A program made the translations under genes and the position numbers. The notes beneath the pieces were generated by a model, which ran no database searches, was not told the origin of the DNA, and saw only the letters and a program-made list of their open reading frames with translations. From Candidatus Omnitrophota bacterium (GTDB taxonomy: Bacteria > Omnitrophota > Gorgyraeia > Gygaellales > Profunditerraquicolaceae): a stretch of 64,000 nucleotides of DNA. Location: the NCBI GenBank assembly GCA_028710685.1, contig JAQTTQ010000001.1:1648-65647 (forward strand). Direction: 5' to 3'. Numbering within the stretch: position 1 is the first letter of the stretch; each line of letters opens with the position of its first letter. This document shows, piece by piece, positions 13,031 to 38,462 of this stretch.

Positions 13031-13756
13031 ATGCCTAGAAAAAACAAGGATAATTACGAGATTTACGTAAAACAGATTGAAGTCTTGTCTAAGGTAGCAA
13101 ACCTGATTACTTCAGGAATGTACCTGGAGGAGCTTCTGCGCCTGATTGTCAATGTTACTGCTGAGATAATGAATTCTAAGATATCCTCTTTAATGCTCTT
13201 AGACCATGAAAAGAAAGAGTTGGTGGTGCGCGCTACTCAGTCAATCTCCGAATCTTATAATAAGAAGCCTAATATAAAGATGGGAACTGGCATAGCCGGC
13301 GAGGTTGCTTTAAATAATAAGGCTATAGTTGTGCCGGACCTTAAAAAAGACCCCCGCTATCTTAATCAGGATATCGCAAGGAAAGAAAAACTTTGTTCCC
13401 TGGCGAGCATTCCTATGGCGGTAAATGGGAAGGTTATCGGCGTGCTTAATTGTTATACTTCTAAGAAGCATGAATTTACCAAGACAGAGTTGAATCTTCT
13501 CAACGCCTTGGCAAATCAGGCAGCTATAGCTATTGAGAATGCAGAGCTAAACCTTCGAGCGCGCTCTGCGGAAGAGGCCCTTACTACGCGCAAAGTCGTA
13601 GAGAGGGCGAGGGATATTTTATCCCAGGAAGCTAACATTTTGCCTTCGGAAGCATACCGTTTAATTCAAAAACAGAGTATGGATTCCCGTAAGTCAATGC
13701 GGGAGGTAGCCGAGGCCATAATCTTGGCCAAGGATATAAAGAGTAAGAAGTATTGA
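13031..13756 (+). CDS. GAF-ANTAR protein (putative RNA-binding antiterminator with a ligand-sensing GAF domain)
   Basis: The N-terminal GAF segment includes GTGIAGEVALNNKAIVVPD. The C-terminal ANTAR segment TRKVVERARDILSQEANILPSEAYRLIQKQSMDSRKSMREVAEAII closely resembles the AmiR/NasR-type ANTAR domain. Confidence 0.75.
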   Translation: MPRKNKDNYEIYVKQIEVLSKVANLITSGMYLEELLRLIVNVTAEIMNSKISSLMLLDHEKKELVVRATQSISESYNKKPNIKMGTGIAGEVALNNKAIVVPDLKKDPRYLNQDIARKEKLCSLASIPMAVNGKVIGVLNCYTSKKHEFTKTELNLLNALANQAAIAIENAELNLRARSAEEALTTRKVVERARDILSQEANILPSEAYRLIQKQSMDSRKSMREVAEAIILAKDIKSKKY

Positions 13757-13825
13757 CAAATATAGATTTTATGTTAGACTAGTATTAGATTACGCAATGA
13801 TGCAGTAATACGCAATGACATAGAA

Positions 13826-13869
13826 GTCTTCTGGGCTTGTTAAAAAAGCCAGAAGGCTTTTTCTTTTTA
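13826..13869 (+). terminator. intrinsic terminator after the GAF-ANTAR gene
   Basis: Stem CTTCTGGGCTT/AAGCCAGAAGG with loop GTTAAAA, followed by CTTTTTCTTTTT. Confidence 0.7.
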
Positions 13870-13870
13870 C

Positions 13871-13924
13871 GGACACTGGAGTCCTCAATCCGGAATTTAT
13901 TCCGGTTGGGGGCTCTTATTTTTT
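13871..13924 (+). promoter_or_regulatory. leader of the sigma-factor gene: hexaloop hairpin overlapping a terminator-like structure
   Basis: GGAC-ACUGGA-GUCC (13871-13884) is a hexaloop hairpin. A GAGTCC (13879-13884) ... GGGCTC stem encloses the palindrome CCGGAATTTATTCCGG (13890-13905) and is followed by TTATTTTTT (13916-13924). The hexaloop hairpin and the terminator 5' arm share nucleotides. Confidence 0.45.
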
Positions 13925-13933
13925 GAGGGTAAG

Positions 13934-14455
13934 ATGGAGTATGCCCGGTTATTAAAAAAACTTTTACCTAAGATAAAAGGGATAGCCTTTAAGCTAAACA
14001 GGTATTATGGGCCTTTTGCTTATGATGATTTATGCCAGGAAGCGATTATCCATCTTTGGGTTAATTTTAAAGCAGGCCGTTTAGCTGAGAAGACGCAGAG
14101 TTATATATTGCAGGGGTGCTACTTTCACCTGAGGAATTATATCCGTAAATTTAGCGAAAAAAATACCCTCTTAAGCCTGGATTCATTAATTAATGATGAT
14201 AACGAGGTAACCCTTGAAGGCCTGCTCGTTTTAGATGATGAGAGAGATTTGCGCGATGTTATGAATGATAATTTCCTGGTGGAGGCTATTGAAAATAACG
14301 GTTTTACTATAAGGGAAAAGCAGATACTTAAGTTTTATAAAAAGGGACTCACTACTAGAGAAATAGGGGGGAGGCTCAGCCTTTCTCATGTTAGAATAAT
14401 TAAGATTATGCAGAATATAAGAATTAAGTGCCGTAAATACCAGGATATTTTTTAG
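13934..14455 (+). CDS. sigma-70 family RNA polymerase sigma factor (ECF-like, region 2 plus region 4)
   Basis: The region 2-like segment DLCQEAIIHLWVNF...YILQGCYFHLRNYIRK and the region 4 HTH LTTREIGGRLSLSHVRIIKIMQNIRIKCRK. The RBS is GAGGGTAAG. Length is 173 aa. Confidence 0.75.
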   Translation: MEYARLLKKLLPKIKGIAFKLNRYYGPFAYDDLCQEAIIHLWVNFKAGRLAEKTQSYILQGCYFHLRNYIRKFSEKNTLLSLDSLINDDNEVTLEGLLVLDDERDLRDVMNDNFLVEAIENNGFTIREKQILKFYKKGLTTREIGGRLSLSHVRIIKIMQNIRIKCRKYQDIF

Positions 14456-14552
14456 TTACCAGGCTTAAGCCGTTTTTACTTGTATATATAAGACACATTG
14501 AAGTGTAATCTAATACAAAGGCGTTCCTTGATAAAGGGGCGCTATTTTTTTT
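14456..14552 (+). promoter_or_regulatory. amt leader (element A): small terminator hairpin, hexaloop hairpin and a strong intrinsic terminator before the RBS
   Basis: GGCTTAAGCC plus Ts at 14462-14476. Hairpin ACAC-AUUGAA-GUGU at 14493-14506. A 9-bp terminator stem GCGTTCCTT/AAGGGGCGC with a GATA loop, then TATTTTTTTT, at 14521-14552. The amt RBS AAGGAGGGG follows directly. The block is about 70% identical to 18495-18587. Confidence 0.55.
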
Positions 14553-18494: not shown

Positions 18495-18618
18495 TGTTAC
18501 CAAGCCTAGGGCTTGTTTACTTGTATATGTAGAAGGCACATAGTAGTGTAATAGTACCAGAAAGAACGAAGGCGTTCATGATAGCTGATAAATAAGCTAA
18601 AGTGAACGTCTTTTTTTT
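18495..18618 (+). promoter_or_regulatory. fis-gltBD leader (element B): paralogous copy of the amt leader with hexaloop hairpin and terminator
   Basis: AAGCCTAGGGCTT hairpin plus Ts at 18503-18518. Hairpin (G)CAC-AUAGUA-GUG(U) at 18536-18549. Alternative hairpin GAACG-AAGG-CGTTC at 18564-18577. A 9-bp terminator stem GGCGTTCAT/GTGAACGTC followed by T8, at 18571-18618. Confidence 0.55.
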
Positions 18619-18648
18619 GGTTAAGCGGTGATTAAAATTTAGGCAGAC

Positions 18649-19026
18649 ATGATAACTATCCTAATATCTGAAGATGAAATAAGGGCCAAAGAGGCCCTCG
18701 CTAGGATGTTCGCCCAGGAGGGATATGAACTTTCAGAATCCTGCCTTACGGGCAATGTCATAAGGGTAGTGAAGAAGGGCTGCATCCGCGACCTTGCCTT
18801 TATAGGCGATAGTGCAATTGAGATACAGGATTCATTTCTTAGCGGCCGGGGGGCATTGTATAAATCGGTAGTTGAAGAAATAGAAAAGCCTTTAATCGAA
18901 CATACCCTTGAGAGTACCCAGGGCAATCAGATAAAGGCGGCAAAGGTTTTAGGGCTAAACCGTAATACCTTACGTACCAAGATAAGAAAGCTAGGAATTA
19001 ATGTTAGAAAATGGAAAATTATATGA
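18649..19026 (+). CDS. Fis-family DNA-binding protein
   Basis: The C-terminal segment LYKSVVEEIEKPLIEHTLESTQGNQIKAAKVLGLNRNTLRTKIRKLGI matches the Fis/NtrC C-terminal HTH. The N-terminus resembles a vestigial receiver start (ITILISEDEIRAKEALARM). Confidence 0.65.
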   Translation: MITILISEDEIRAKEALARMFAQEGYELSESCLTGNVIRVVKKGCIRDLAFIGDSAIEIQDSFLSGRGALYKSVVEEIEKPLIEHTLESTQGNQIKAAKVLGLNRNTLRTKIRKLGINVRKWKII

Positions 19027-25014: not shown

Positions 25015-27594
25015 ATGATTAGCACCGGTATAAAAGGGTTAGATAGCGTGATTACGGGGTTAAGGCTAGGAGATAATGTAGTTTGGCAGATCGATCATAT
25101 CGATGACTATCTAGATTTGGTAAGGCCATTTGTCAGGCAGTCATTAAAAGAAGGAAGAAAAGTGGTTTATATCAGGTTTGCCGCGCACCAAGAGCTCCTT
25201 AAGCCATCCGCTAAGGTAAGGCGTTATGATTTAGACGCTAGTGCCGGATTTGAATCTTTTACTGCCAGGGTGAATAATATTATTACCGCGGAAGGGGAAG
25301 GGGCTTATTATGTGTTTGACTGTTTGTCTGAGCTGCTTTTGGCTTGGGCCACCGATCTTATGATGGGTGATTTCTTTATGCTGACTTGCCCGTATCTCTA
25401 CGAGCTTAAGACAGTAACCTACTTTTCTATTTTACGTAACAACCATTCCTTTAAGTCTATAGCGCGCATACGCGAGACGACACAATTATTGCTTGATGTG
25501 TACCGTTGCCAAGAGAGTTTTTATATCCATCCCTTAAAGGTATGGAACCGCTATTCTCCTACTATGTTTTTACCGCATTTAAGAAAGGGGGATGAGTGTA
25601 TTCCGATTACGGATAGCGTAAACGCGGCAAGGCTTTTTTCCTATATCAGGGAAAAGGGGGCAGAGAATGCCAAACGCAACCTTGATTATTGGGACCGTTT
25701 ATTTCTGGAGGCCGGCGATCTGGCAGGGAAAAACCTTCCTAAGGAGAAGGTTAAGGAAACCTTGGCAAAGTTATGCAGTATAATGATCTCTAAAAATAAG
25801 AAAATATTGGATTTGGCGATGCGAACTTTCTCGCTGGAGGAACTTATAGAAATAAAGTCACGCTTAATCGGGACCGGTTTTATCGGGGGTAAAACCGTGG
25901 GTATGCTCATCGCCAGGAAGATACTTTCGCAGAAGCTTTTAAACTGGAAAGAATTATCTGAGCCCCATGACTCTTTTTATATCGGTTCGGATATATTTTA
26001 TTCTTATATAGTCCATAACCGCTGGTGGAAACTGCATATGCAGCAGAAGACTGAAGAAGGTTATTTTAATGCGGCAAGGTTATTGAAAGAAAGGATGCTT
26101 TACGGGATATTCCCCGAAGAGATTATGGAGCATTTTCAGCAGATCATTGAATATTTCGGGTCATCGCCTATTATAATACGCTCCAGCTCACTGCTGGAGG
26201 ATGATTTTGGCAATGCCTTTGCCGGTAAATATGAGAGTATATTTCTGGCTAACCAAGGCAGTCCCGAGCAGAGGTATATACAATTTGCGGAGGCAGTTAG
26301 GAAAATTTATGCCAGCACAATGAATGAGGATGCTTTAGTTTATAGGAAGCAGAGGGGGTTGGATAAGCTGGATGAGCAGATGGCCCTTTTGGTGCAGCGT
26401 GTTTCAGGCGCTCATCATAAAGATTTTTTCTTTCCGGATTTAGCCGGGGTAGGCGTTTCATATAATACATATGTTTGGAATAACGAAATCAATCCTAAGA
26501 CAGGCATGCTGAGGGTTGTTTTCGGGTTGGGTACCAGGGCGGTTAATCGGGTGGAAGGGGATTATCCTAGGATGGTAGCTTTGTCCGATCCCCTGCGCAG
26601 GCCTTATGCGCAAAATGAGGATTTAAGAAAATATTCCCAGCATGACGTAGATGTTATAGATACAAAAGAAAACTCCCTGGCTACAATATCCTTTAATGAG
26701 CTGGCCTTAAAGAATATCTATAAAAATGTCGAAGCCTTTGCGGTTAAGGATTATGATTCGATGGATTTCATGAGTAAAAGAGGCCAGGATGGGCAATATT
26801 GGATTCTGACACTCGATAATATATTTAATGATAATAAATTGCCGGATTTTTTTAGGAAAATACTCGGGGAATTAGAGTTAAACTATGATTATCCGGTTGA
26901 AATAGAATTTACGGTTAATTTCACGGGGGATAACAAGTTTAAGATCAATCTCCTGCAGTGCCGTCCGTTACAAACATACGGCCTGGAGCGTAAGGTTAAG
27001 ATACCTAAGGCAATAAGTAAGGAGGATACCCTATTTGATTCCAGGGGTTATTTTTTAGGAGGGAATATTAACCAGAAGATAAGCTGGATTATCTATATTG
27101 ACCCTGAAAGGTACAGTAAGCTTATCCTTTCCGATAAATATGAGGTAGCCCGGATAGTAGGCAAATTAAATATATCTATTAAAAGCAGGGATGAGCTGCC
27201 TACCCTTTTAATGGGACCGGGCAGATGGGGTACAACTACGCCTTCACTGGGAGTACCGGTTAAGTTCGCCGAGATAAATAATGTAGCGGCCCTTGCTGAG
27301 ATTGCTTTTTCATCCGGAAATTTAATGCCGGAGTTATCATTCGGTACCCATTTTTTTCAGGATTTGGTAGAAACAAATATATTTTACGCAGCCCTATTCC
27401 CCGGCAGGAAGGAAGTCATTTTCAATAAAAAATGGTTTGATAAGAACAGGAATCTGTTTACTGATCTTATCCCCGAGTCGGCAAAATACGAAGATGTAAT
27501 CGGGGTATATGATGTAAGCGAAAAAAACTTTAAGATTATTTCGGAGGTAGTTTCGCAGAGAGTTGTTTGTTTTGCTCAAGGGTTTACTAATTGA
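25015..27594 (+). CDS. PEP/pyruvate-binding (PPDK_N ATP-grasp-like) domain protein with an N-terminal degenerate KaiC/RecA-like domain
   Basis: The N-terminus GIKGLDSVITGLRLGDNVVWQ resembles the KaiC/RadA start but has no Walker A motif. A central segment GTGFIGGKTVGMLIARKIL resembles the PEP-synthase/PPDK nucleotide-binding domain. No His swivel motif was seen. The RBS is AAAGAGGAG. Confidence 0.5.
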   Translation: MISTGIKGLDSVITGLRLGDNVVWQIDHIDDYLDLVRPFVRQSLKEGRKVVYIRFAAHQELLKPSAKVRRYDLDASAGFESFTARVNNIITAEGEGAYYVFDCLSELLLAWATDLMMGDFFMLTCPYLYELKTVTYFSILRNNHSFKSIARIRETTQLLLDVYRCQESFYIHPLKVWNRYSPTMFLPHLRKGDECIPITDSVNAARLFSYIREKGAENAKRNLDYWDRLFLEAGDLAGKNLPKEKVKETLAKLCSIMISKNKKILDLAMRTFSLEELIEIKSRLIGTGFIGGKTVGMLIARKILSQKLLNWKELSEPHDSFYIGSDIFYSYIVHNRWWKLHMQQKTEEGYFNAARLLKERMLYGIFPEEIMEHFQQIIEYFGSSPIIIRSSSLLEDDFGNAFAGKYESIFLANQGSPEQRYIQFAEAVRKIYASTMNEDALVYRKQRGLDKLDEQMALLVQRVSGAHHKDFFFPDLAGVGVSYNTYVWNNEINPKTGMLRVVFGLGTRAVNRVEGDYPRMVALSDPLRRPYAQNEDLRKYSQHDVDVIDTKENSLATISFNELALKNIYKNVEAFAVKDYDSMDFMSKRGQDGQYWILTLDNIFNDNKLPDFFRKILGELELNYDYPVEIEFTVNFTGDNKFKINLLQCRPLQTYGLERKVKIPKAISKEDTLFDSRGYFLGGNINQKISWIIYIDPERYSKLILSDKYEVARIVGKLNISIKSRDELPTLLMGPGRWGTTTPSLGVPVKFAEINNVAALAEIAFSSGNLMPELSFGTHFFQDLVETNIFYAALFPGRKEVIFNKKWFDKNRNLFTDLIPESAKYEDVIGVYDVSEKNFKIISEVVSQRVVCFAQGFTN

Positions 27595-27650
27595 CAGTTT
27601 CTTAAACTATGCTATACTTACAAATAGTTCAAGGGAGAACTCAAGAGTTT

Positions 27651-27701
27651 AAACAATGGCGTTTAAGGGCCGTTCCATCGGCATTAAACGCCTTTTTGTT
27701 T
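27651..27701 (+). promoter_or_regulatory. pyrG leader: hexaloop hairpin overlapping an intrinsic terminator (candidate attenuator)
   Basis: AAAC-AAUGGC-GUUU (27651-27664). A 9-bp terminator stem GGCGTTTAA (27658-27666) / TTAAACGCC (27685-27693) with a structured loop, followed by TTTTTGTTT. The two structures are mutually exclusive. Confidence 0.5.
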
Positions 27702-33575: not shown

Positions 33576-34202
33576 ATGTTTTCTTTCATTGTAAAGGGCG
33601 GACCAGTTATGCTGCCGATTATTTTAGGTTCTGTAATCGGCCTGGCTATTGTTATTGAGAGATTCTGGGTTTTTAGGGAGATGAGGCTTAATACCTTTGA
33701 TTTTATCCAGTCAGTTTTCCGTAACATTAAGGAAGGGAAGATTAAAGAGGCGCTTTTTGTTTGCGACAAATTTATACATCATCCTTTAGGGGTAATATTC
33801 AAGATAGGCATAGAAAGAAGGAATTTGCCGTTAGAGAGGCTGGAGAAGGTCTTAGAGCAGGCCGGGAATAATCAGATACAAAAGCTGGAGAAGTACTTGG
33901 GGGCCTTAGTTACGATAGTCGGCATTGAGCCGCTTTTAGGGTTTTTAGGCACGATTACAGGGTTAATCCGCGCATTTATGTCCTGGGAGCAGGCAGGCGC
34001 GAATGTTACCGTCAGCGTATTGGCTGCGGGTATTTATGAGGCGATGCTTACTACCGCCGCAGGGTTGATTGTGGCAATCCCGCTTTATCTATGCTACAAT
34101 TATTTTATAAGCCGCATTAAATCTGTATCTAACGAACTCTCCAATCATTGTATTCAGCTCCTTGAGGTTATCGCAGAGACAAAAGAAGGAAAGGGTGTAT
34201 GA
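33576..34202 (+). CDS. MotA/TolQ/ExbB-family proton channel
   Basis: Three TM helices and the conserved C-terminal TM pair (IEPLLGFLGTITGLIRAF). Confidence 0.8.
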   Translation: MFSFIVKGGPVMLPIILGSVIGLAIVIERFWVFREMRLNTFDFIQSVFRNIKEGKIKEALFVCDKFIHHPLGVIFKIGIERRNLPLERLEKVLEQAGNNQIQKLEKYLGALVTIVGIEPLLGFLGTITGLIRAFMSWEQAGANVTVSVLAAGIYEAMLTTAAGLIVAIPLYLCYNYFISRIKSVSNELSNHCIQLLEVIAETKEGKGV

Positions 34203-34621
34203 AGATAGCCGGGCGCCGGGCTCACCTAGAGAAAATGGAATCAGTGGTGATGACGGACATCATTTTGAATATGTTCATTTTCTTCTTTATCTCCTTTAGC
34301 CTCCTTTACACCTTCAGCCCCTATCGTATAAAGAAGCTTGAGGTAAGGCTTCCGGAGGCAGCCTCTGCCAGGCCATTAGAGGGGAAGGGGCAGGTAAATA
34401 TCACTATAAATAATGAGGGGGTTATTTATCTTGACCAGGAGCATGTGGCTAAGAAATCTTTACGCGAGAAGATCTCCAAGCGGTATACACAGAATCCGGG
34501 GTTAGGCGTTATCCTAAGTTCTGACAGGTTGGTGCGTTTTAAGGATATAGTGGATGTGCTGGATATATTAAATGCCGTAGGCATTAAGAATCTTAATATT
34601 GCGGCAACCAGCGAAAAATAA
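34199..34621 (+). CDS. ExbD/TolR-family protein
   Basis: A single N-terminal TM helix followed by a periplasmic domain, overlapping the exbB-like gene. The true start may be an internal ATG. Confidence 0.7.
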   Translation: MKIAGRRAHLEKMESVVMTDIILNMFIFFFISFSLLYTFSPYRIKKLEVRLPEAASARPLEGKGQVNITINNEGVIYLDQEHVAKKSLREKISKRYTQNPGLGVILSSDRLVRFKDIVDVLDILNAVGIKNLNIAATSEK

Positions 34622-34627
34622 TCTTTC

Positions 34628-34738
34628 TTGACAAAAATTGTAATAGTGTTATTATTTAATCTCAATATTAGTTTTGAGGACAATGGCGTCCATTCTTTAC
34701 CGTTATTTATATAATTACGGAAGGAGTGGGCGTTTTTT
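34628..34738 (+). promoter_or_regulatory. nfnA leader: promoter, hexaloop hairpin and a terminator-like structure
   Basis: TTGACA (34628-34633), 16-nt spacer, TATTAT (34650-34655). Hairpin GGAC-AAUGGC-GUCC (34678-34691). An 8-bp stem GTCCATTC (34688-34695) / GAGTGGGC (34724-34731) with an inner hairpin, then G plus TTTTTT (34733-34738). The hairpin and terminator overlap. A perfect inverted repeat GCCTAAGAATTAGGC (34752-34766) abuts the RBS. Confidence 0.5.
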
Positions 34739-34774
34739 ATTCTCAAGGGATGCCTAAGAATTAGGCAGAAGGTT

Positions 34775-35599
34775 ATGAAAATACTAAGCAAGGAAGTGTT
34801 AAGCGATTTTCAGGGGGTAAGGGTTATCAGCATGGAGATTTTTGCCCCGAAAATTGCCTTAAAGGCTAAGCCCGGGCAGTTTATCGCGCTTATGGTAAAT
34901 AAGGACGGTGAGAGGGTGCCTTTAACCATAGTAAGCACGGGAAATGACTCTATAAGAATTATCTTTCAGGAAGCAGGTTTTACTACCAGGCTCTTGGGAA
35001 GGCTTAATCTCCAGGATACCCTTTATGCTATAGTCGGGCCTCTTGGCCATGCAACCGATATCAAGCGTTTCGGCAAAGTAATTCTGGTCGGAGGAGGGGT
35101 AGGCATTGCCGAGATTTATCCGGTAGCAAAGGCCTTAAAAGAAGCGGGAAATAATGTTACCGGTATTCTTGGTGCAAGGACCAGGGATCTGCTTATCCTT
35201 GAGAATGAATTAAGGGAGGCCTCGAGCCAGTTGTTTGTGGCAACGGATGACGGGTCTTACCAGAGAAAGGGCTTTGTTACCGATATATTAAAAGAATTAC
35301 TAGAAAAAGATAAATATGATTTGGTTTATTCGGTAGGCCCGATTCCGATGATGAAGAGGGTTGCGCAGGTCACTAAGGGTTTTAAGGTTAAGACTATTGT
35401 TTCCCTGAATGCGTTAATGGTGGATGCAACCGGTATGTGCGGATGCTGCCGGGTTACGGTCTCAGGGCAAACAAAATTCAGCTGTATCGACGGCCCGGAG
35501 TTTGAGGCGCAGGAGATAGACTGGGAGGAGCTAACCCAGAGAAACCGGGTCTATCAGGATAAAGAAAAGCATATCTGTAATCTTAATAAGTTATTCTAA
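34775..35599 (+). CDS. nfnA: NfnA/SudB-type small subunit (PyrK-like FAD/[2Fe-2S] ferredoxin-NADP+ reductase subunit)
   Basis: PyrK-like fold with a C-terminal Cys cluster CGCCRVTVSGQTKFSC, 274 aa, paired with a GltD-like subunit. Confidence 0.75.
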   Translation: MKILSKEVLSDFQGVRVISMEIFAPKIALKAKPGQFIALMVNKDGERVPLTIVSTGNDSIRIIFQEAGFTTRLLGRLNLQDTLYAIVGPLGHATDIKRFGKVILVGGGVGIAEIYPVAKALKEAGNNVTGILGARTRDLLILENELREASSQLFVATDDGSYQRKGFVTDILKELLEKDKYDLVYSVGPIPMMKRVAQVTKGFKVKTIVSLNALMVDATGMCGCCRVTVSGQTKFSCIDGPEFEAQEIDWEELTQRNRVYQDKEKHICNLNKLF

Positions 35600-35607
35600 G
35601 GTAAACT

Positions 35608-37038
35608 ATGCCAAAACCGGCGGTTAAAACAAAAGAAGTCCCTGCTTGTGAGAGAATCTTAGGTTTCTCAGAGGTCACCTGCGGGTATACGCAGGAAGAA
35701 GCCATTTTAGAAGCATCACGCTGCCTGCAGTGCAAAGACCCCAAGTGTATACCCGGTTGCCCGGTAGGGATAAATATCAAGCAGTTTATAAAACAGGTTA
35801 CGCAAAAAGATTTTGCCGGGGCCTATTATACTATCAGGGAAAAGAATAATTTTCCATGCATCTGCGGGAGAGTTTGCCCTGCGGAATACCAGTGCAGAAA
35901 GGCCTGTGTTTTAACAAAAAAAGATTCGCCATTTGCCAGCGCGGATTCCATAAATATACATTTTATTGAGAGGTTTGTCGGCGATTTCGGGATGAAAAAC
36001 GGTTTAAAGGTAAATATTATCCCCGATGAAAAAATCTCCGGGCATAAAGTTGCGGTTGTAGGCTCCGGGCCTGCCGGATTATGCTGCGCAGGAGAGTTAG
36101 CGCGTTTGGGGGTTAAGGTTACGGTCTTTGAGGCGTTGCATAAAAACGGAGGGGTATTAAGATATGGTATCCCGCCCTTTAGGATGCCGCGCGATATACT
36201 TGACTTCGAGATAAATTACCTGAAAAGCTTAGGCGTTGAGATCCTGCCGAATTTTATTGTAGGCAAGACTAACGATTTAGCGGATTTGTTTAAAGAAGGT
36301 TTTTCTGCGGTTTTTTTAGGTTTGGGTGCAGGGGTTCCTTCCTTTCTCGGTATTGCGGGAGAGAACCTTTGTAATGTTTATTCGGCAAATGAATTCCTGA
36401 CCAGGGTTAACCTTATGTCCGCATATGAGTTTCCTAAAGCCCATACTCCCGTTAATATAGGCAAGCATATCTTAGTGGTAGGCGGGGGGAATACGGCAAT
36501 GGATGCCGCGCGTTGTGCTTTAAGGCTGCAAAAGATGAATAATATTGAGCCTGATACTACTATTGTTTATAGGAGGACAGAGGTAGAGATGCCTGCCCGC
36601 AGGCTTGAGATAGAGCATGCCAAGGAAGAAGGCGTTAAGTTTAAGATGCTGGTCAGCCCGCAAGAGTTTAAGGGTGATGATTCCGGTTTTGTAAAGGTCT
36701 TAAAATCTTTGGAGTGTAAATTAGGGCAGCCGGATGCCTCTGGCAGAAGGAGGCCGGTTGCTATCGAGGGAAGCGATTTTGAAATTGAATGCGATCTGGC
36801 TATTATCGCCATAGGGCTTAAGGCGAATCAGGTTTTAACCAGCGTAACCCCGGAAATCAAAACAGATAAATATTCGGATGTAATAGTTAATCCTCAAACT
36901 ATGGAGACTTCTATGAGAGGGGTATTTGCCGGAGGCGACATAGTCGGAGGGGAAGGGACAGTGATTGAGGCAATGGGCATGGCTAAGAAGGCAGCCCTTG
37001 CAATTAAGGATTATTTGTATCAGTTACCTATTAAATAA
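35608..37038 (+). CDS. nfnB: NfnB/SudA-type large subunit (GltD-like NADPH oxidoreductase with two [4Fe-4S] clusters)
   Basis: CLQCKDPKCIPGCP and CICGRVCPAEYQCRKAC clusters. The FAD/NAD segment VAVVGSGPAGLCCAGEL. Length is 476 aa. Confidence 0.8.
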   Translation: MPKPAVKTKEVPACERILGFSEVTCGYTQEEAILEASRCLQCKDPKCIPGCPVGINIKQFIKQVTQKDFAGAYYTIREKNNFPCICGRVCPAEYQCRKACVLTKKDSPFASADSINIHFIERFVGDFGMKNGLKVNIIPDEKISGHKVAVVGSGPAGLCCAGELARLGVKVTVFEALHKNGGVLRYGIPPFRMPRDILDFEINYLKSLGVEILPNFIVGKTNDLADLFKEGFSAVFLGLGAGVPSFLGIAGENLCNVYSANEFLTRVNLMSAYEFPKAHTPVNIGKHILVVGGGNTAMDAARCALRLQKMNNIEPDTTIVYRRTEVEMPARRLEIEHAKEEGVKFKMLVSPQEFKGDDSGFVKVLKSLECKLGQPDASGRRRPVAIEGSDFEIECDLAIIAIGLKANQVLTSVTPEIKTDKYSDVIVNPQTMETSMRGVFAGGDIVGGEGTVIEAMGMAKKAALAIKDYLYQLPIK

Positions 37039-37062
37039 TTTAAATTTAAGGAGGTGGGGTAG

Positions 37063-38400
37063 ATGTCGGTAAAAATCGAAGAGTTTATGAATAATGTGAT
37101 AAGTAAGAACCCCAATGAGGCTGAATTCCATCAGGCAGTCAGGGAGGTCGTAGAATCGGTGCTTCCCTTTATCGAAGAAAATCCTAAGTACCTTAAGGCT
37201 AAAATATTAGAGAGAATGGTTGAGCCTGAAAGGACTATTATTTTCCGCACTCCCTGGCTTGATGATAAAGGAGAGATTCAGGTTAGCCGAGGTTACCGTA
37301 TAGAGATGAACAGCGCAATCGGGCCTTATAAGGGCGGTTTACGTTTTCATCCCAGCGTAAACTTAGGTATCTTGAAATTCTTGGCTTTTGAGCAGGTTTT
37401 TAAGAATGCGTTGACTACTCTGCCTATGGGCGGAGGCAAAGGGGGGTCAGATTTTGACCCTAAGGGGAAGTCGGATAACGAGGTGATGAGGTTTTGCCAG
37501 AGTTTTATGGTTGAGCTCTCCAGGCATATAGGCCCTAATACAGATGTCCCTGCCGGTGATATCGGGGTGGGCGGCCGCGAAATAGGCTATATGTTCGGCC
37601 AGTATAAAAGATTACGCAATGAATTTACCGGCGTTTTAACCGGCAAAGGATTAAACTGGGGAGGAAGTCTTATTCGTCCGGAGGCTACGGGATACGGCTG
37701 TGTATATTTTGTTGAAGAAATGCTTAAGACAAGGGGAGAGTCTCTTAAGGGTAAGGTTTGCGCCGTCTCCGGATCGGGTAATGTTGCCCAGTATACTGTA
37801 GAGAAACTGCTTCAGTTGGGGGCAAAGGTAGTAACGCTTTCTGACTCTGACGGATTTATCTATGATGGTGAAGGCATCGACCAGAAAGAGCTGAAGTGCG
37901 TTTTGAATTTAAAGAATGTTAAGCGCGGCCGCATAAAGGAATGCGCGAAGGAATTTAAGTGCGATTATTTCGATAAGCAAAAGCCCTGGTCGATAAAATG
38001 CGACGTAGCTTTCCCCAGCGCAACGCAAAATGAAATAGATGAGCAGGATGCAAAAACCCTGGTTAAAAACGGTTGTCTTGCTATAGGGGAAGGGGCGAAT
38101 ATGCCTACTACGCCCTCCGGAGTTGAAATCTTTCAGAAGGCTAAGATTCTTTATGCCCCGGGTAAGGCGTCTAATGCCGGAGGCGTGGCTACTTCCGGGT
38201 TAGAGATGTCCCAGAACAGTATGCGCCTTTCCTGGTCGCGCGAGGAGGTAGACAGAAAATTGCATGATATAATGGTGGCCATACATGAGCAGTGTGTTAA
38301 GTACGGTAAAGAAGACGGTTATATCAACTACGTTAAAGGAGCAAATATCGCCGGATTTGTTAAGGTTGCCGATGCCATGATTGACCAGGGAATAGTCTGA
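37063..38400 (+). CDS. gdhA: NADP-specific glutamate dehydrogenase
   Basis: Typical GdhA N-terminus (EAEFHQAVREVVESV), GGGKGG and the catalytic lysine region. Length is 445 aa. Confidence 0.9.
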   Translation: MSVKIEEFMNNVISKNPNEAEFHQAVREVVESVLPFIEENPKYLKAKILERMVEPERTIIFRTPWLDDKGEIQVSRGYRIEMNSAIGPYKGGLRFHPSVNLGILKFLAFEQVFKNALTTLPMGGGKGGSDFDPKGKSDNEVMRFCQSFMVELSRHIGPNTDVPAGDIGVGGREIGYMFGQYKRLRNEFTGVLTGKGLNWGGSLIRPEATGYGCVYFVEEMLKTRGESLKGKVCAVSGSGNVAQYTVEKLLQLGAKVVTLSDSDGFIYDGEGIDQKELKCVLNLKNVKRGRIKECAKEFKCDYFDKQKPWSIKCDVAFPSATQNEIDEQDAKTLVKNGCLAIGEGANMPTTPSGVEIFQKAKILYAPGKASNAGGVATSGLEMSQNSMRLSWSREEVDRKLHDIMVAIHEQCVKYGKEDGYINYVKGANIAGFVKVADAMIDQGIV

Positions 38401-38427: not shown

Positions 38428-38462
38428 AAAACGCCCTCTTATACTTGGAGGGCGTTTTTATT
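38428..38462 (+). terminator. intrinsic terminator after gdhA
   Basis: Stem ACGCCCTC/GAGGGCGT with a 9-nt loop, flanked by AAA and TTTTTATTATT. Confidence 0.75.

Follow-up and report, generated by a model that had tools for sequence, protein, structure and literature searches.

What kind of regulatory element is carried by the leader of the nfnA-nfnB-gdhA operon in a Candidatus Omnitrophota bacterium? The leader lies in a stretch of 64,000 nucleotides (nt) from assembly GCA_028710685.1 (contig JAQTTQ010000001.1, forward-strand positions 1,648-65,647), which is called the window and to which the coordinates below refer. The analysis was wholly computational. The leader occupied the intergenic interval 34622-34774, between an exbD/tolR-like gene and the three-gene operon. 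An initial annotation had placed in it a hairpin GGAC/AATGGC/GTCC, a stem ending in T6, and an inverted repeat ending 8 nt before the start codon, and all three were confirmed in the sequence. The leader is read here as an ANTAR-type transcription attenuator operated by a GAF-ANTAR protein, with a probability of about 0.72. This assignment is made because the loop of the hairpin obeys the A1/G4 rule, the terminator overlaps the hairpin, a GAF-ANTAR gene is linked, and related modules front nitrogen genes. The elements of the leader and its flanks were as follows.

34628-34655, + strand: sigma-70-type promoter, with the -35 element TTGACA (34628-34633), a 16-nt spacer, and the extended -10 element TGtTATTAT (34647-34655)
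34678-34691, + strand: single hexaloop hairpin GGAC-AAUGGC-GUCC, candidate ANTAR-binding antiterminator
34685-34738, + strand: intrinsic terminator, with the stem at 34687-34732 and the U-tract at 34733-34738; its 5' arm starts at loop G4
34751-34767, no strand assigned: 17-bp palindrome TGCCTAA-GAA-TTAGGCA (TGCCTAAGAATTAGGCA), probable DNA operator
34767-34777, + strand: Shine-Dalgarno sequence AGAAGG (34767-34772) and nfnA ATG (34775-34777), read from sequence
34775-38400, + strand: nfnA-nfnB-gdhA, the predicted regulated operon, from domain searches
34199-34621: exbD/tolR-like gene, upstream neighbour of the leader

Hairpin and overlapping terminator

The promoter, TTGACA-16-TGtTATTAT, matched 11 of 12 consensus positions and contained the extended -10 TG. 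The combination of TTGACA, a 16-18 nt spacer, and TAnnnT was found in all of the orthologous leaders (40/40). Transcription is predicted to start at about 34662, so that the 5' untranslated region (5' UTR) would be about 112 nt long and the hairpin would be preceded by only about 16 nt of RNA. The 5' UTR had initially been given as 153 nt. This value is the intergenic distance, and it was replaced by the shorter one because the near-consensus promoter sits within the intergenic interval.

The hexaloop AAUGGC spanned residues 34682-34687, with A1 at 34682 and G4 at 34685, the two loop positions of the ANTAR recognition rule (PMC3369931, PMC8934654). The hairpin folded by itself had an energy of -5.5 kcal/mol, and it was present upstream of nfnA in 40 Omnitrophota-type orthologous loci. 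When related sites were pooled (n = 64), A1 was kept in 57 and G4 in all 64, with a loop consensus of A-A/G-N-G-R-C and position 5 divided between A (32) and G (31). Positions outside the terminator were still conserved in these pooled sites (A7, 64/64; C8, 58/64), and the 5' half of the hairpin together with loop residues A1-A3 was conserved despite lying outside the terminator. This conservation indicates that the hairpin has a function of its own and that the terminator alone cannot account for the motif.

A 4-bp hexaloop hairpin alone was commonplace, with 64 A1/G4 hairpins in the window. Pooling of the paralogous leaders gave modest covariation in the stem, where pair 2 was GC in 50, AU in 6, and GU in 3 sites, and the closing pair was CG in 57 and UG in 6. 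A DNA palindrome, GACGTC, was considered behind the motif and rejected because half of the sites read GGCGTC. In the Rfam 15 scan of the window, only tRNAs reached the gathering threshold; the best match in the leader, with 20.9 bits against a gathering score of 70, was a chance microRNA match.

The intrinsic terminator began at loop G4 and its 5' arm contained the 3' half of the hairpin, in agreement with the overlap between the hairpin and a terminator-like stem that the initial annotation had described. In the minimum-free-energy fold, residues 34687-34732 formed one long stem directly before T6. The terminator stem had an energy of -22 kcal/mol and was followed by U6. The 169-nt region had an energy of -47.1 kcal/mol (z = -4.4), and none of 200 shuffles was as stable. 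A simple terminator scanner missed this terminator because the loop was longer than the scanner limit. An intrinsic terminator starting at loop G4 was found in 38 of the 40 orthologues, with energies of -10 to -31 kcal/mol and tracts of T4-T9. Over these 38 orthologues, pairing in the helix at the terminator base reached 96.6% and double-sided changes numbered 28, a result equalled by none of 500 shuffles. In addition, loop position 5 covaried with its terminator partner, forming AU in 21 and GC in 13 cases.

The hairpin and the terminator exclude each other because the 5' arm of the terminator begins at loop G4. Two orthologues, L022 (477-528) and L030 (3918-3968), reached the same mutual exclusion by an independent route, in which the 3' arm of the terminator paired with the 5' half and loop of the hairpin and not with its 3' half. 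The terminator state had an energy of -26 to -30 kcal/mol, and the fold with the hairpin enforced had an energy of -17.7 kcal/mol. With the hairpin enforced in the window, 5 nt separated the end of the residual stem from the U-tract; among the orthologues, those with short terminators kept no residual stem. Since the terminator is far more stable than the hairpin, the default state would be termination, and a clamped hairpin would give read-through.

The stem-loop and T6 might also be the terminator of the upstream tolQ/exbD genes, in which case the likeness to the leader of a sigma-like gene elsewhere in the window would be coincidental. The placement in the intergenic region after exbD agrees with such a role. 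However, the near-consensus promoter is located upstream of the terminator and not downstream of it, and the order of promoter, hairpin, and terminator was kept in 40 species despite differing upstream genes, GAF-ANTAR genes included. A covariance model of the composite hairpin and overlapping terminator (R1), built from the orthologues, matched the nfnAB-gdhA leader with an E-value of 1.6e-6. A terminator serving only the upstream genes is therefore hardly credible.

GAF-ANTAR protein and related leaders

R1 matched the window at five sites. Each is on the + strand and precedes either nitrogen-assimilation genes or the sigma-like regulator of such genes. The proposed regulator and the further leaders are listed below.

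13031-13756, + strand: GAF-ANTAR one-component regulator, proposed trans-acting antiterminator (Pfam)
13812-13925, + strand: leader of the sigma-like gene, two tandem hexaloop/terminator modules, UGAC-AUAGAA-GUCU and GGAC-ACUGGA-GUCC (R1 E = 0.0016 and 5.6)
14493-14550, + strand: leader of amt-glnB-glnA(III), first hairpin (P1) ACAC-AUUGAA-GUGU and second hairpin (P2) AC-AAAGGC-GU, the latter overlapping the terminator (R1 E = 0.0012)
18536-18645, + strand: leader of HTH_8-gltB-gltD, P1 GCAC-AUAGUA-GUGU and P2 GAAC-GAAGGC-GUUC overlapping the terminator, followed by the palindrome TGATTAAAATTTAGGCA (18629-18645) (R1 E = 1.1e-4)
27626-27697, + strand: leader of pyrG (CTP synthase), P1 AGUUC-AAGGGA-GAACU and P2 UUUAAAC-AAUGGC-GUUUAA overlapping the terminator (R1 E = 0.061)

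The GAF-ANTAR protein, which had already been linked with the leader in the initial annotation, is the natural candidate for the regulator. Its two domains were identified by Pfam as GAF_2 (1e-23) and ANTAR (PF03861; 3.5e-16, 59.2 bits against a cut-off of 27.3). When the ANTAR domain was aligned to EutV, Rv1626, and NasR, the G4-stacking Tyr and the Met plug were kept. Compared with the RNA-contact set of EutV (6WSH/6WW6), the Arg, Lys, Tyr, and Met residues were identical and two Lys residues were replaced by Arg; the residue numbering of this alignment included an offset of 2 derived from residue identities. The GAF domain was nearest to the GAF domains of NifA, Aquifex Nlh1/2, and PtsP. 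The GAF domains of NifA and PtsP respond to 2-oxoglutarate or glutamine. Because of this resemblance, the GAF-ANTAR protein may have as its ligand a metabolite that reports nitrogen status, for example 2-oxoglutarate or glutamine.

In 11 related loci, a GAF-ANTAR gene was the immediate neighbour of nfnAB-gdhA, on its upstream or its downstream side, and the GAF-ANTAR paralogue copies were themselves preceded by one or two hexaloop modules. Second GAF-ANTAR paralogues, 52-61% identical to the window protein, were common among the relatives; in L014, L018, L019, L028, L032, L048, and L051, the second paralogue was located downstream of gdhA with its own modules upstream.

The sigma-like gene (13934-14455), assigned to the sigma70-ECF superfamily with 49 bits, had its leader directly after the GAF-ANTAR gene. 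Its second hairpin, GGAC-ACTGGA-GTCC at 13871-13884, was laid out like the hairpin of the nfnA leader, a likeness that had been pointed out before and that held here. The tandem modules suggest a sigma factor doubly gated by the antiterminator. The leader of HTH_8-gltB-gltD was kept in three relatives (L081, L082, and L085). In the amt leader, the mechanical open reading frame start of the ammonium transporter, TTG 14498, fell within the P1 hairpin; the true start is probably ATG 14570 or 14576, past the terminator and a GGAGG.

In the relatives, R1 gave further matches upstream of an archaeal-type gltB-like gene, nadE, carB, and pyrG. The regulon seems to reach glutamine- or ammonia-consuming enzymes, and so to cover nitrogen spending as well as uptake. 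The motif places for pyrG, nadE, and carB were 27591-27697 in the window, about 7815-7906 in L003 and L005, and 8066-8118 in L036. In L036, whose record is labelled as a Methanosarcinales archaeon, nfnAB resembled that of Omnitrophota and carB was preceded by a hexaloop module; the contig was probably mis-binned.

The amt, gltBD, and pyrG leaders of the window were canonical dual-hexaloop sites, with two tandem hexaloops and a constrained linker, and their P1 stems covaried in their orthologues. The nfnA leader did not have this layout. The distance from the -10 element to the hairpin was 5-42 nt in 39 of 40 orthologues and 66 nt in L012 (median 19.5), and 13 leaders had fewer than about 9 transcribed nt upstream of the hairpin. 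Many leaders cannot hold an upstream P1, because the -10 element is so close to the hairpin. An upstream A1/G4 hairpin was found in 4 of 40 leaders against 1.0 expected. The same single-hexaloop layout was found in the gltB-like leaders of L049, L057, and L065.

Two candidates for a second hexaloop in the nfnA leader of the window were rejected. Residues 34662-34677 formed a 4-bp stem with an 8-nt loop, which was not conserved and was absent from the closest relative (L001), and most orthologues had no room for a P1. In the terminator apex, no hexaloop with G4 was found.

An RNA-binding protein of another kind or a small-molecule riboswitch could also run the hairpin/terminator switch, or uncontrolled partial termination could damp a strong promoter. 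The stem was too conserved for covariation, and there was one hairpin only, unlike validated ANTAR substrates; both points leave room for such a switch. However, a 14-nt hairpin is too small for a ligand pocket, and no Rfam family matched. The loop fits both the ANTAR A1/G4 pattern and the GnfR loop (PMC2995071). Furthermore, the motif adjoined GAF-ANTAR genes in the 11 loci and also preceded those genes, and three sister leaders in the window were canonical ANTAR sites. A switch of this other kind is therefore quite improbable.

Several points weigh against an attenuator operated by the GAF-ANTAR protein. The nfnA leader lacks the two-hairpin layout, and both hairpins and their spacing are required for EutV antitermination (PMC3369931, PMC8934654). 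Covariation of the hairpin in the nfnA orthologues was not significant, 84 of 500 shuffles being as good; it is weak because the stem GAC/GUC is almost invariant. The equivalent of EutV Glu160 was Pro in the ANTAR domain of the window. The transcription start is a predicted and not a mapped position, and termination and read-through at the nfnA leader are themselves predictions. Finally, the placement of gdhA under one regulator with amt and glutamine synthetase (GS) is physiologically unusual, and in Geobacter gdhA is repressed while the ANTAR regulon is on (PMC2995071).

For the GAF-ANTAR-operated attenuator, the following mechanism is proposed. Transcription would start at the strong sigma-70 promoter near 34662, and about 16 nt on, the RNA would form the weak 4-bp hairpin with the hexaloop AAUGGC. 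When the protein is absent, loop residues G4-C6 and the 3' half of the stem would be pulled into the more stable terminator with U6, and transcription would stop before nfnA. When the GAF-ANTAR protein is activated by its ligand, the ANTAR domain would clamp the hexaloop hairpin with G4 flipped onto the conserved Tyr. The base of the terminator would thereby be withheld, and RNA polymerase would continue into nfnA-nfnB-gdhA.

Palindrome and HTH_8 protein

The core inverted repeat, GCCTAAGAATTAGGC, spanned residues 34752-34766 and ended 8 nt before ATG 34775; the full palindrome was located 12 nt beyond the U-tract. The initial annotation had offered two roles for it, sequestration of the ribosome-binding site and a protein operator. 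The palindrome, looked for in the orthologous leaders, was present in about half of them (about 20 of the 40 hexaloop leaders), so the proposal was not refuted on this count. Six leaders located after nfnB, most of them ahead of gltB-like genes, contained it as well. In 598 kb of related loci, 28 copies were counted against 1.7 expected. The gene of the candidate binder was located in the gltBD operon.

18649-19026: first gene of the gltBD operon, HTH_8 protein of 125 residues with a Fis/NtrC-type C-terminal HTH_8 domain only, candidate palindrome binder

In the read-through transcripts, the palindrome could act as an RNA hairpin that masks the ribosome-binding region or stabilises the mRNA. 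In the window copy, 7 bp pair without a mismatch (-6.7 kcal/mol) and the stem runs up to the Shine-Dalgarno sequence; most loci had the palindrome inside the part of the leader that is transcribed. The half of the palindrome that does not vary, TTAGGCA, contains AGG and was always proximal to the gene, and leaders without another visible Shine-Dalgarno sequence included those of the HTH_8 gene and the L008 group. However, the AGAAGG of the window is 3' of the palindrome stem and shares with the palindrome only its first A (34767). The left half read TGCATAA, with A at position 4, in 13 of 23 copies, and the partner was still G in 19 of 23; a compensating U was never found. As RNA, 18 of 38 copies had an energy of about 0 kcal/mol. 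The palindrome kept to the preceding T-run (0-13 nt) and not to the start codon (1-227 nt). In the gltB-like leaders, the start codons had a strong AAGGAGG of their own and were separated from the palindrome by 42 to about 190 nt. Furthermore, the palindrome of L014 was upstream of the -35 element, and the copy at L019:7658 was just past the predicted -10 element, at the predicted start site. An RNA hairpin is therefore unlikely, and of the two roles first offered, sequestration of the ribosome-binding site was set aside.

The role as a DNA operator is thus the better reading, and the palindrome probably is one. In all 7 loci with the HTH_8 gene (the window and L081-L086), the palindrome, as TGNNTAA-N3-TTAGGCA, immediately preceded that gene, and for this reason the arrangement has the pattern of an autoregulated DNA-binding protein. 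The HTH_8 protein would be the leading candidate for the binder. Its N-terminal 70 residues had no family match. A metagenome scan for HTH_8 relatives gave 6 true orthologues among 80 loci, and the rest were NtrC-type C-termini.

The NtrC site is a 17-bp dyad, TGCACC-N5-GGTGCA. Like NtrC/Fis-type (HTH_8) operators, the palindrome was a 17-bp dyad TGC...GCA associated with nitrogen genes and with an HTH_8 protein as the candidate binder. Unlike NtrC, the half-site was TGCCTAA and the protein had 125 residues without a receiver or AAA+ domain. In contrast to the upstream enhancer of NtrC, the palindrome was usually inside the transcribed leader just past the terminator.

Two other identities of the palindrome were rejected. 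For a sigma-54 promoter, the GG/GC spacing was wrong by manual reading. As to TTAGGCA being an element of ribosome binding in general, a start codon followed only 3 of the 11 plus-strand copies in the window, and related leaders used AAGGAGG instead.

As an operator, the palindrome would be a second, independent input, through which the HTH_8 protein would act on elongating or initiating polymerase. Its near-constant spacing after the U-tract invites the speculation that it is a roadblock acting with the terminator. The HTH_8 protein would then hold RNA polymerase with the active site in or near the U-tract and tune termination, which would make a two-input gate on glutamate dehydrogenase (GDH) and glutamate synthase (GOGAT). 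The whole combination, a natural single-hexaloop GAF-ANTAR antiterminator coupled to an HTH_8 operator about 5-15 nt past the U-tract that roadblocks RNA polymerase, is put forward as a rather improbable proposal.

Nitrogen genes and known systems

The genes of the operon and its putative end were as follows.

34775-35599, + strand: nfnA-like gene, FAD/NAD/[2Fe-2S] protein (PRK06222, 355 bits)
35608-37038, + strand: nfnB/gltD-like gene (TIGR01316, 521 bits against a cut-off of 472)
37063-38400, + strand: gdhA, NADP-specific glutamate dehydrogenase (NCBIfam equivalog, 774 bits against a cut-off of 536)
38430-38459, + strand: terminator-like hairpin AACGCCCUC...GAGGGCGUU and U-run after gdhA, read from sequence

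The hairpin and U-run at 38430-38459 are likely the end of the operon. The domain content fits NfnAB, although the PRK06222 and TIGR01316 families also take in SudAB-type and GltA-type enzymes. The closest relatives of the NfnA-like protein were all from Candidatus Omnitrophota metagenome-assembled genomes, with a top identity of 83%. The coupling of nfnAB with gdhA in one operon, which had been regarded as functionally coherent, was borne out by conserved synteny of nfnA-nfnB-gdhA in at least 33 Omnitrophota loci. The leader also tracked gdhA: 32 of 35 hairpin leaders preceded an nfnAB-gdhA operon, and 19 of 20 leaders without the hairpin were also without an adjacent gdhA (Fisher p of about 1e-10, phylogeny not corrected for).

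In six loci without gdhA after nfnAB (L017, L044, L049, L055, L057, and L065), nfnB was followed by a gene for a 546-residue archaeal-type GltB-like protein. These genes, about 100-250 nt after nfnB, had their own TTGACA promoter and a single hexaloop/terminator. The palindrome was found in four of the six loci, the exceptions being L049 and L057, where none was scored. In the species without gdhA, glutamate synthesis may be served directly by the NfnB/GltD-like pair.

A promoter-like block that was not of the sigma-70 type, GTTACCA-N17-CTTGTATAT(A/G)TAG, was observed at 14455-14490 and 18496-18532. It preceded the leaders of amt-glnB-glnA(III) and HTH_8-gltB-gltD and their orthologues in L081, L082, and L085. 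These blocks may be promoters for the neighbouring sigma factor, which resembles the extracytoplasmic function (ECF) type, and would give a cascade from the GAF-ANTAR protein through the sigma factor to the assimilation operons.

Among the described systems, the closest relative of the nfnA leader is the GnfR system of Geobacter. The GnfK/GnfR system of Geobacter sulfurreducens (Ueki and Lovley 2010, PMC2995071) likewise combines an ANTAR protein, a nitrogen regulon, and premature terminators in leaders. The GnfR site CAGGCAANGGCGCC, GGC-AANGGC-GCC, has an AANGGC loop overlapping the terminator, as in the nfnA leader, and the GnfR cascade includes an HTH_8-domain DNA-binding regulator, GnfM, which also acts on gdhA (PMC2995071); the candidate binder of the palindrome here is likewise an HTH_8 protein. 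The two systems differ in several respects. GnfR is a phosphorylated receiver-ANTAR protein with a cognate kinase, whereas the protein here is a one-component GAF-ANTAR regulator. The GnfR promoters are sigma-54 dependent, whereas those here are of the sigma-70 type or possibly depend on the local ECF-like sigma factor. In addition, gdhA of Geobacter is not an antitermination target, whereas here it is predicted to be one, and the phylum differs.

The leaders of EutV, NasR, and AmiR (Ramesh 2012, PMC3369931; Walshe 2022, PMC8934654) share with the nfnA leader a short-stem A1/G4 hexaloop that has nucleotides in common with the terminator. The Tyr and Met residues of the ANTAR domain are conserved, and the targets are nitrogen-related. 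In the EutV-RNA structure, recognition of G4 involves flipping of the base onto the conserved Tyr (PMC8934654). Those leaders have P1 and P2 at a fixed spacing, whereas the nfnA leaders have one hexaloop at about 0-35 nt from the predicted 5' end. The predicted ANTAR nitrogen regulons of Desulfotomaculum and Pelobacter (Ramesh 2012) also comprise many leaders, located before glutamate synthase, P-II, amt, and glutamine synthetase, and their terminators overlap the hairpin. Unlike the present leaders, they were found by a dual-hairpin model, the GAF-ANTAR class was not specified, and no palindrome module was described. The departures from the defined ANTAR family are thus the single hexaloop, the GAF-ANTAR class of the regulator, and the added palindromic module.

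The published accounts read for this analysis describe no target for any GAF-ANTAR one-component regulator (PMC3369931, PMC7496416), and the window supplies a complete candidate regulon for this class. One hexaloop is enough for ANTAR binding, and the existence of natural single-hexaloop sites was left as a question by Walshe 2022 (PMC8934654). The present leaders offer dozens of natural cases where one hexaloop appears to replace the dual-hexaloop motif. Search models now in use demand two hairpins and would miss such sites. If the reading of the nfnA leader is true, a hexaloop near the 5' end of the RNA suffices for antitermination in vivo. Given the small size of the RNA element, about 14 nt and a terminator, the module would lend itself well to synthetic control should its ligand be identified. 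For the Omnitrophota, the results sketch a control of nitrogen metabolism that would comprise the GAF-ANTAR protein, an ECF-like sigma factor with its own promoters, and an HTH_8 regulator with a new palindromic site.

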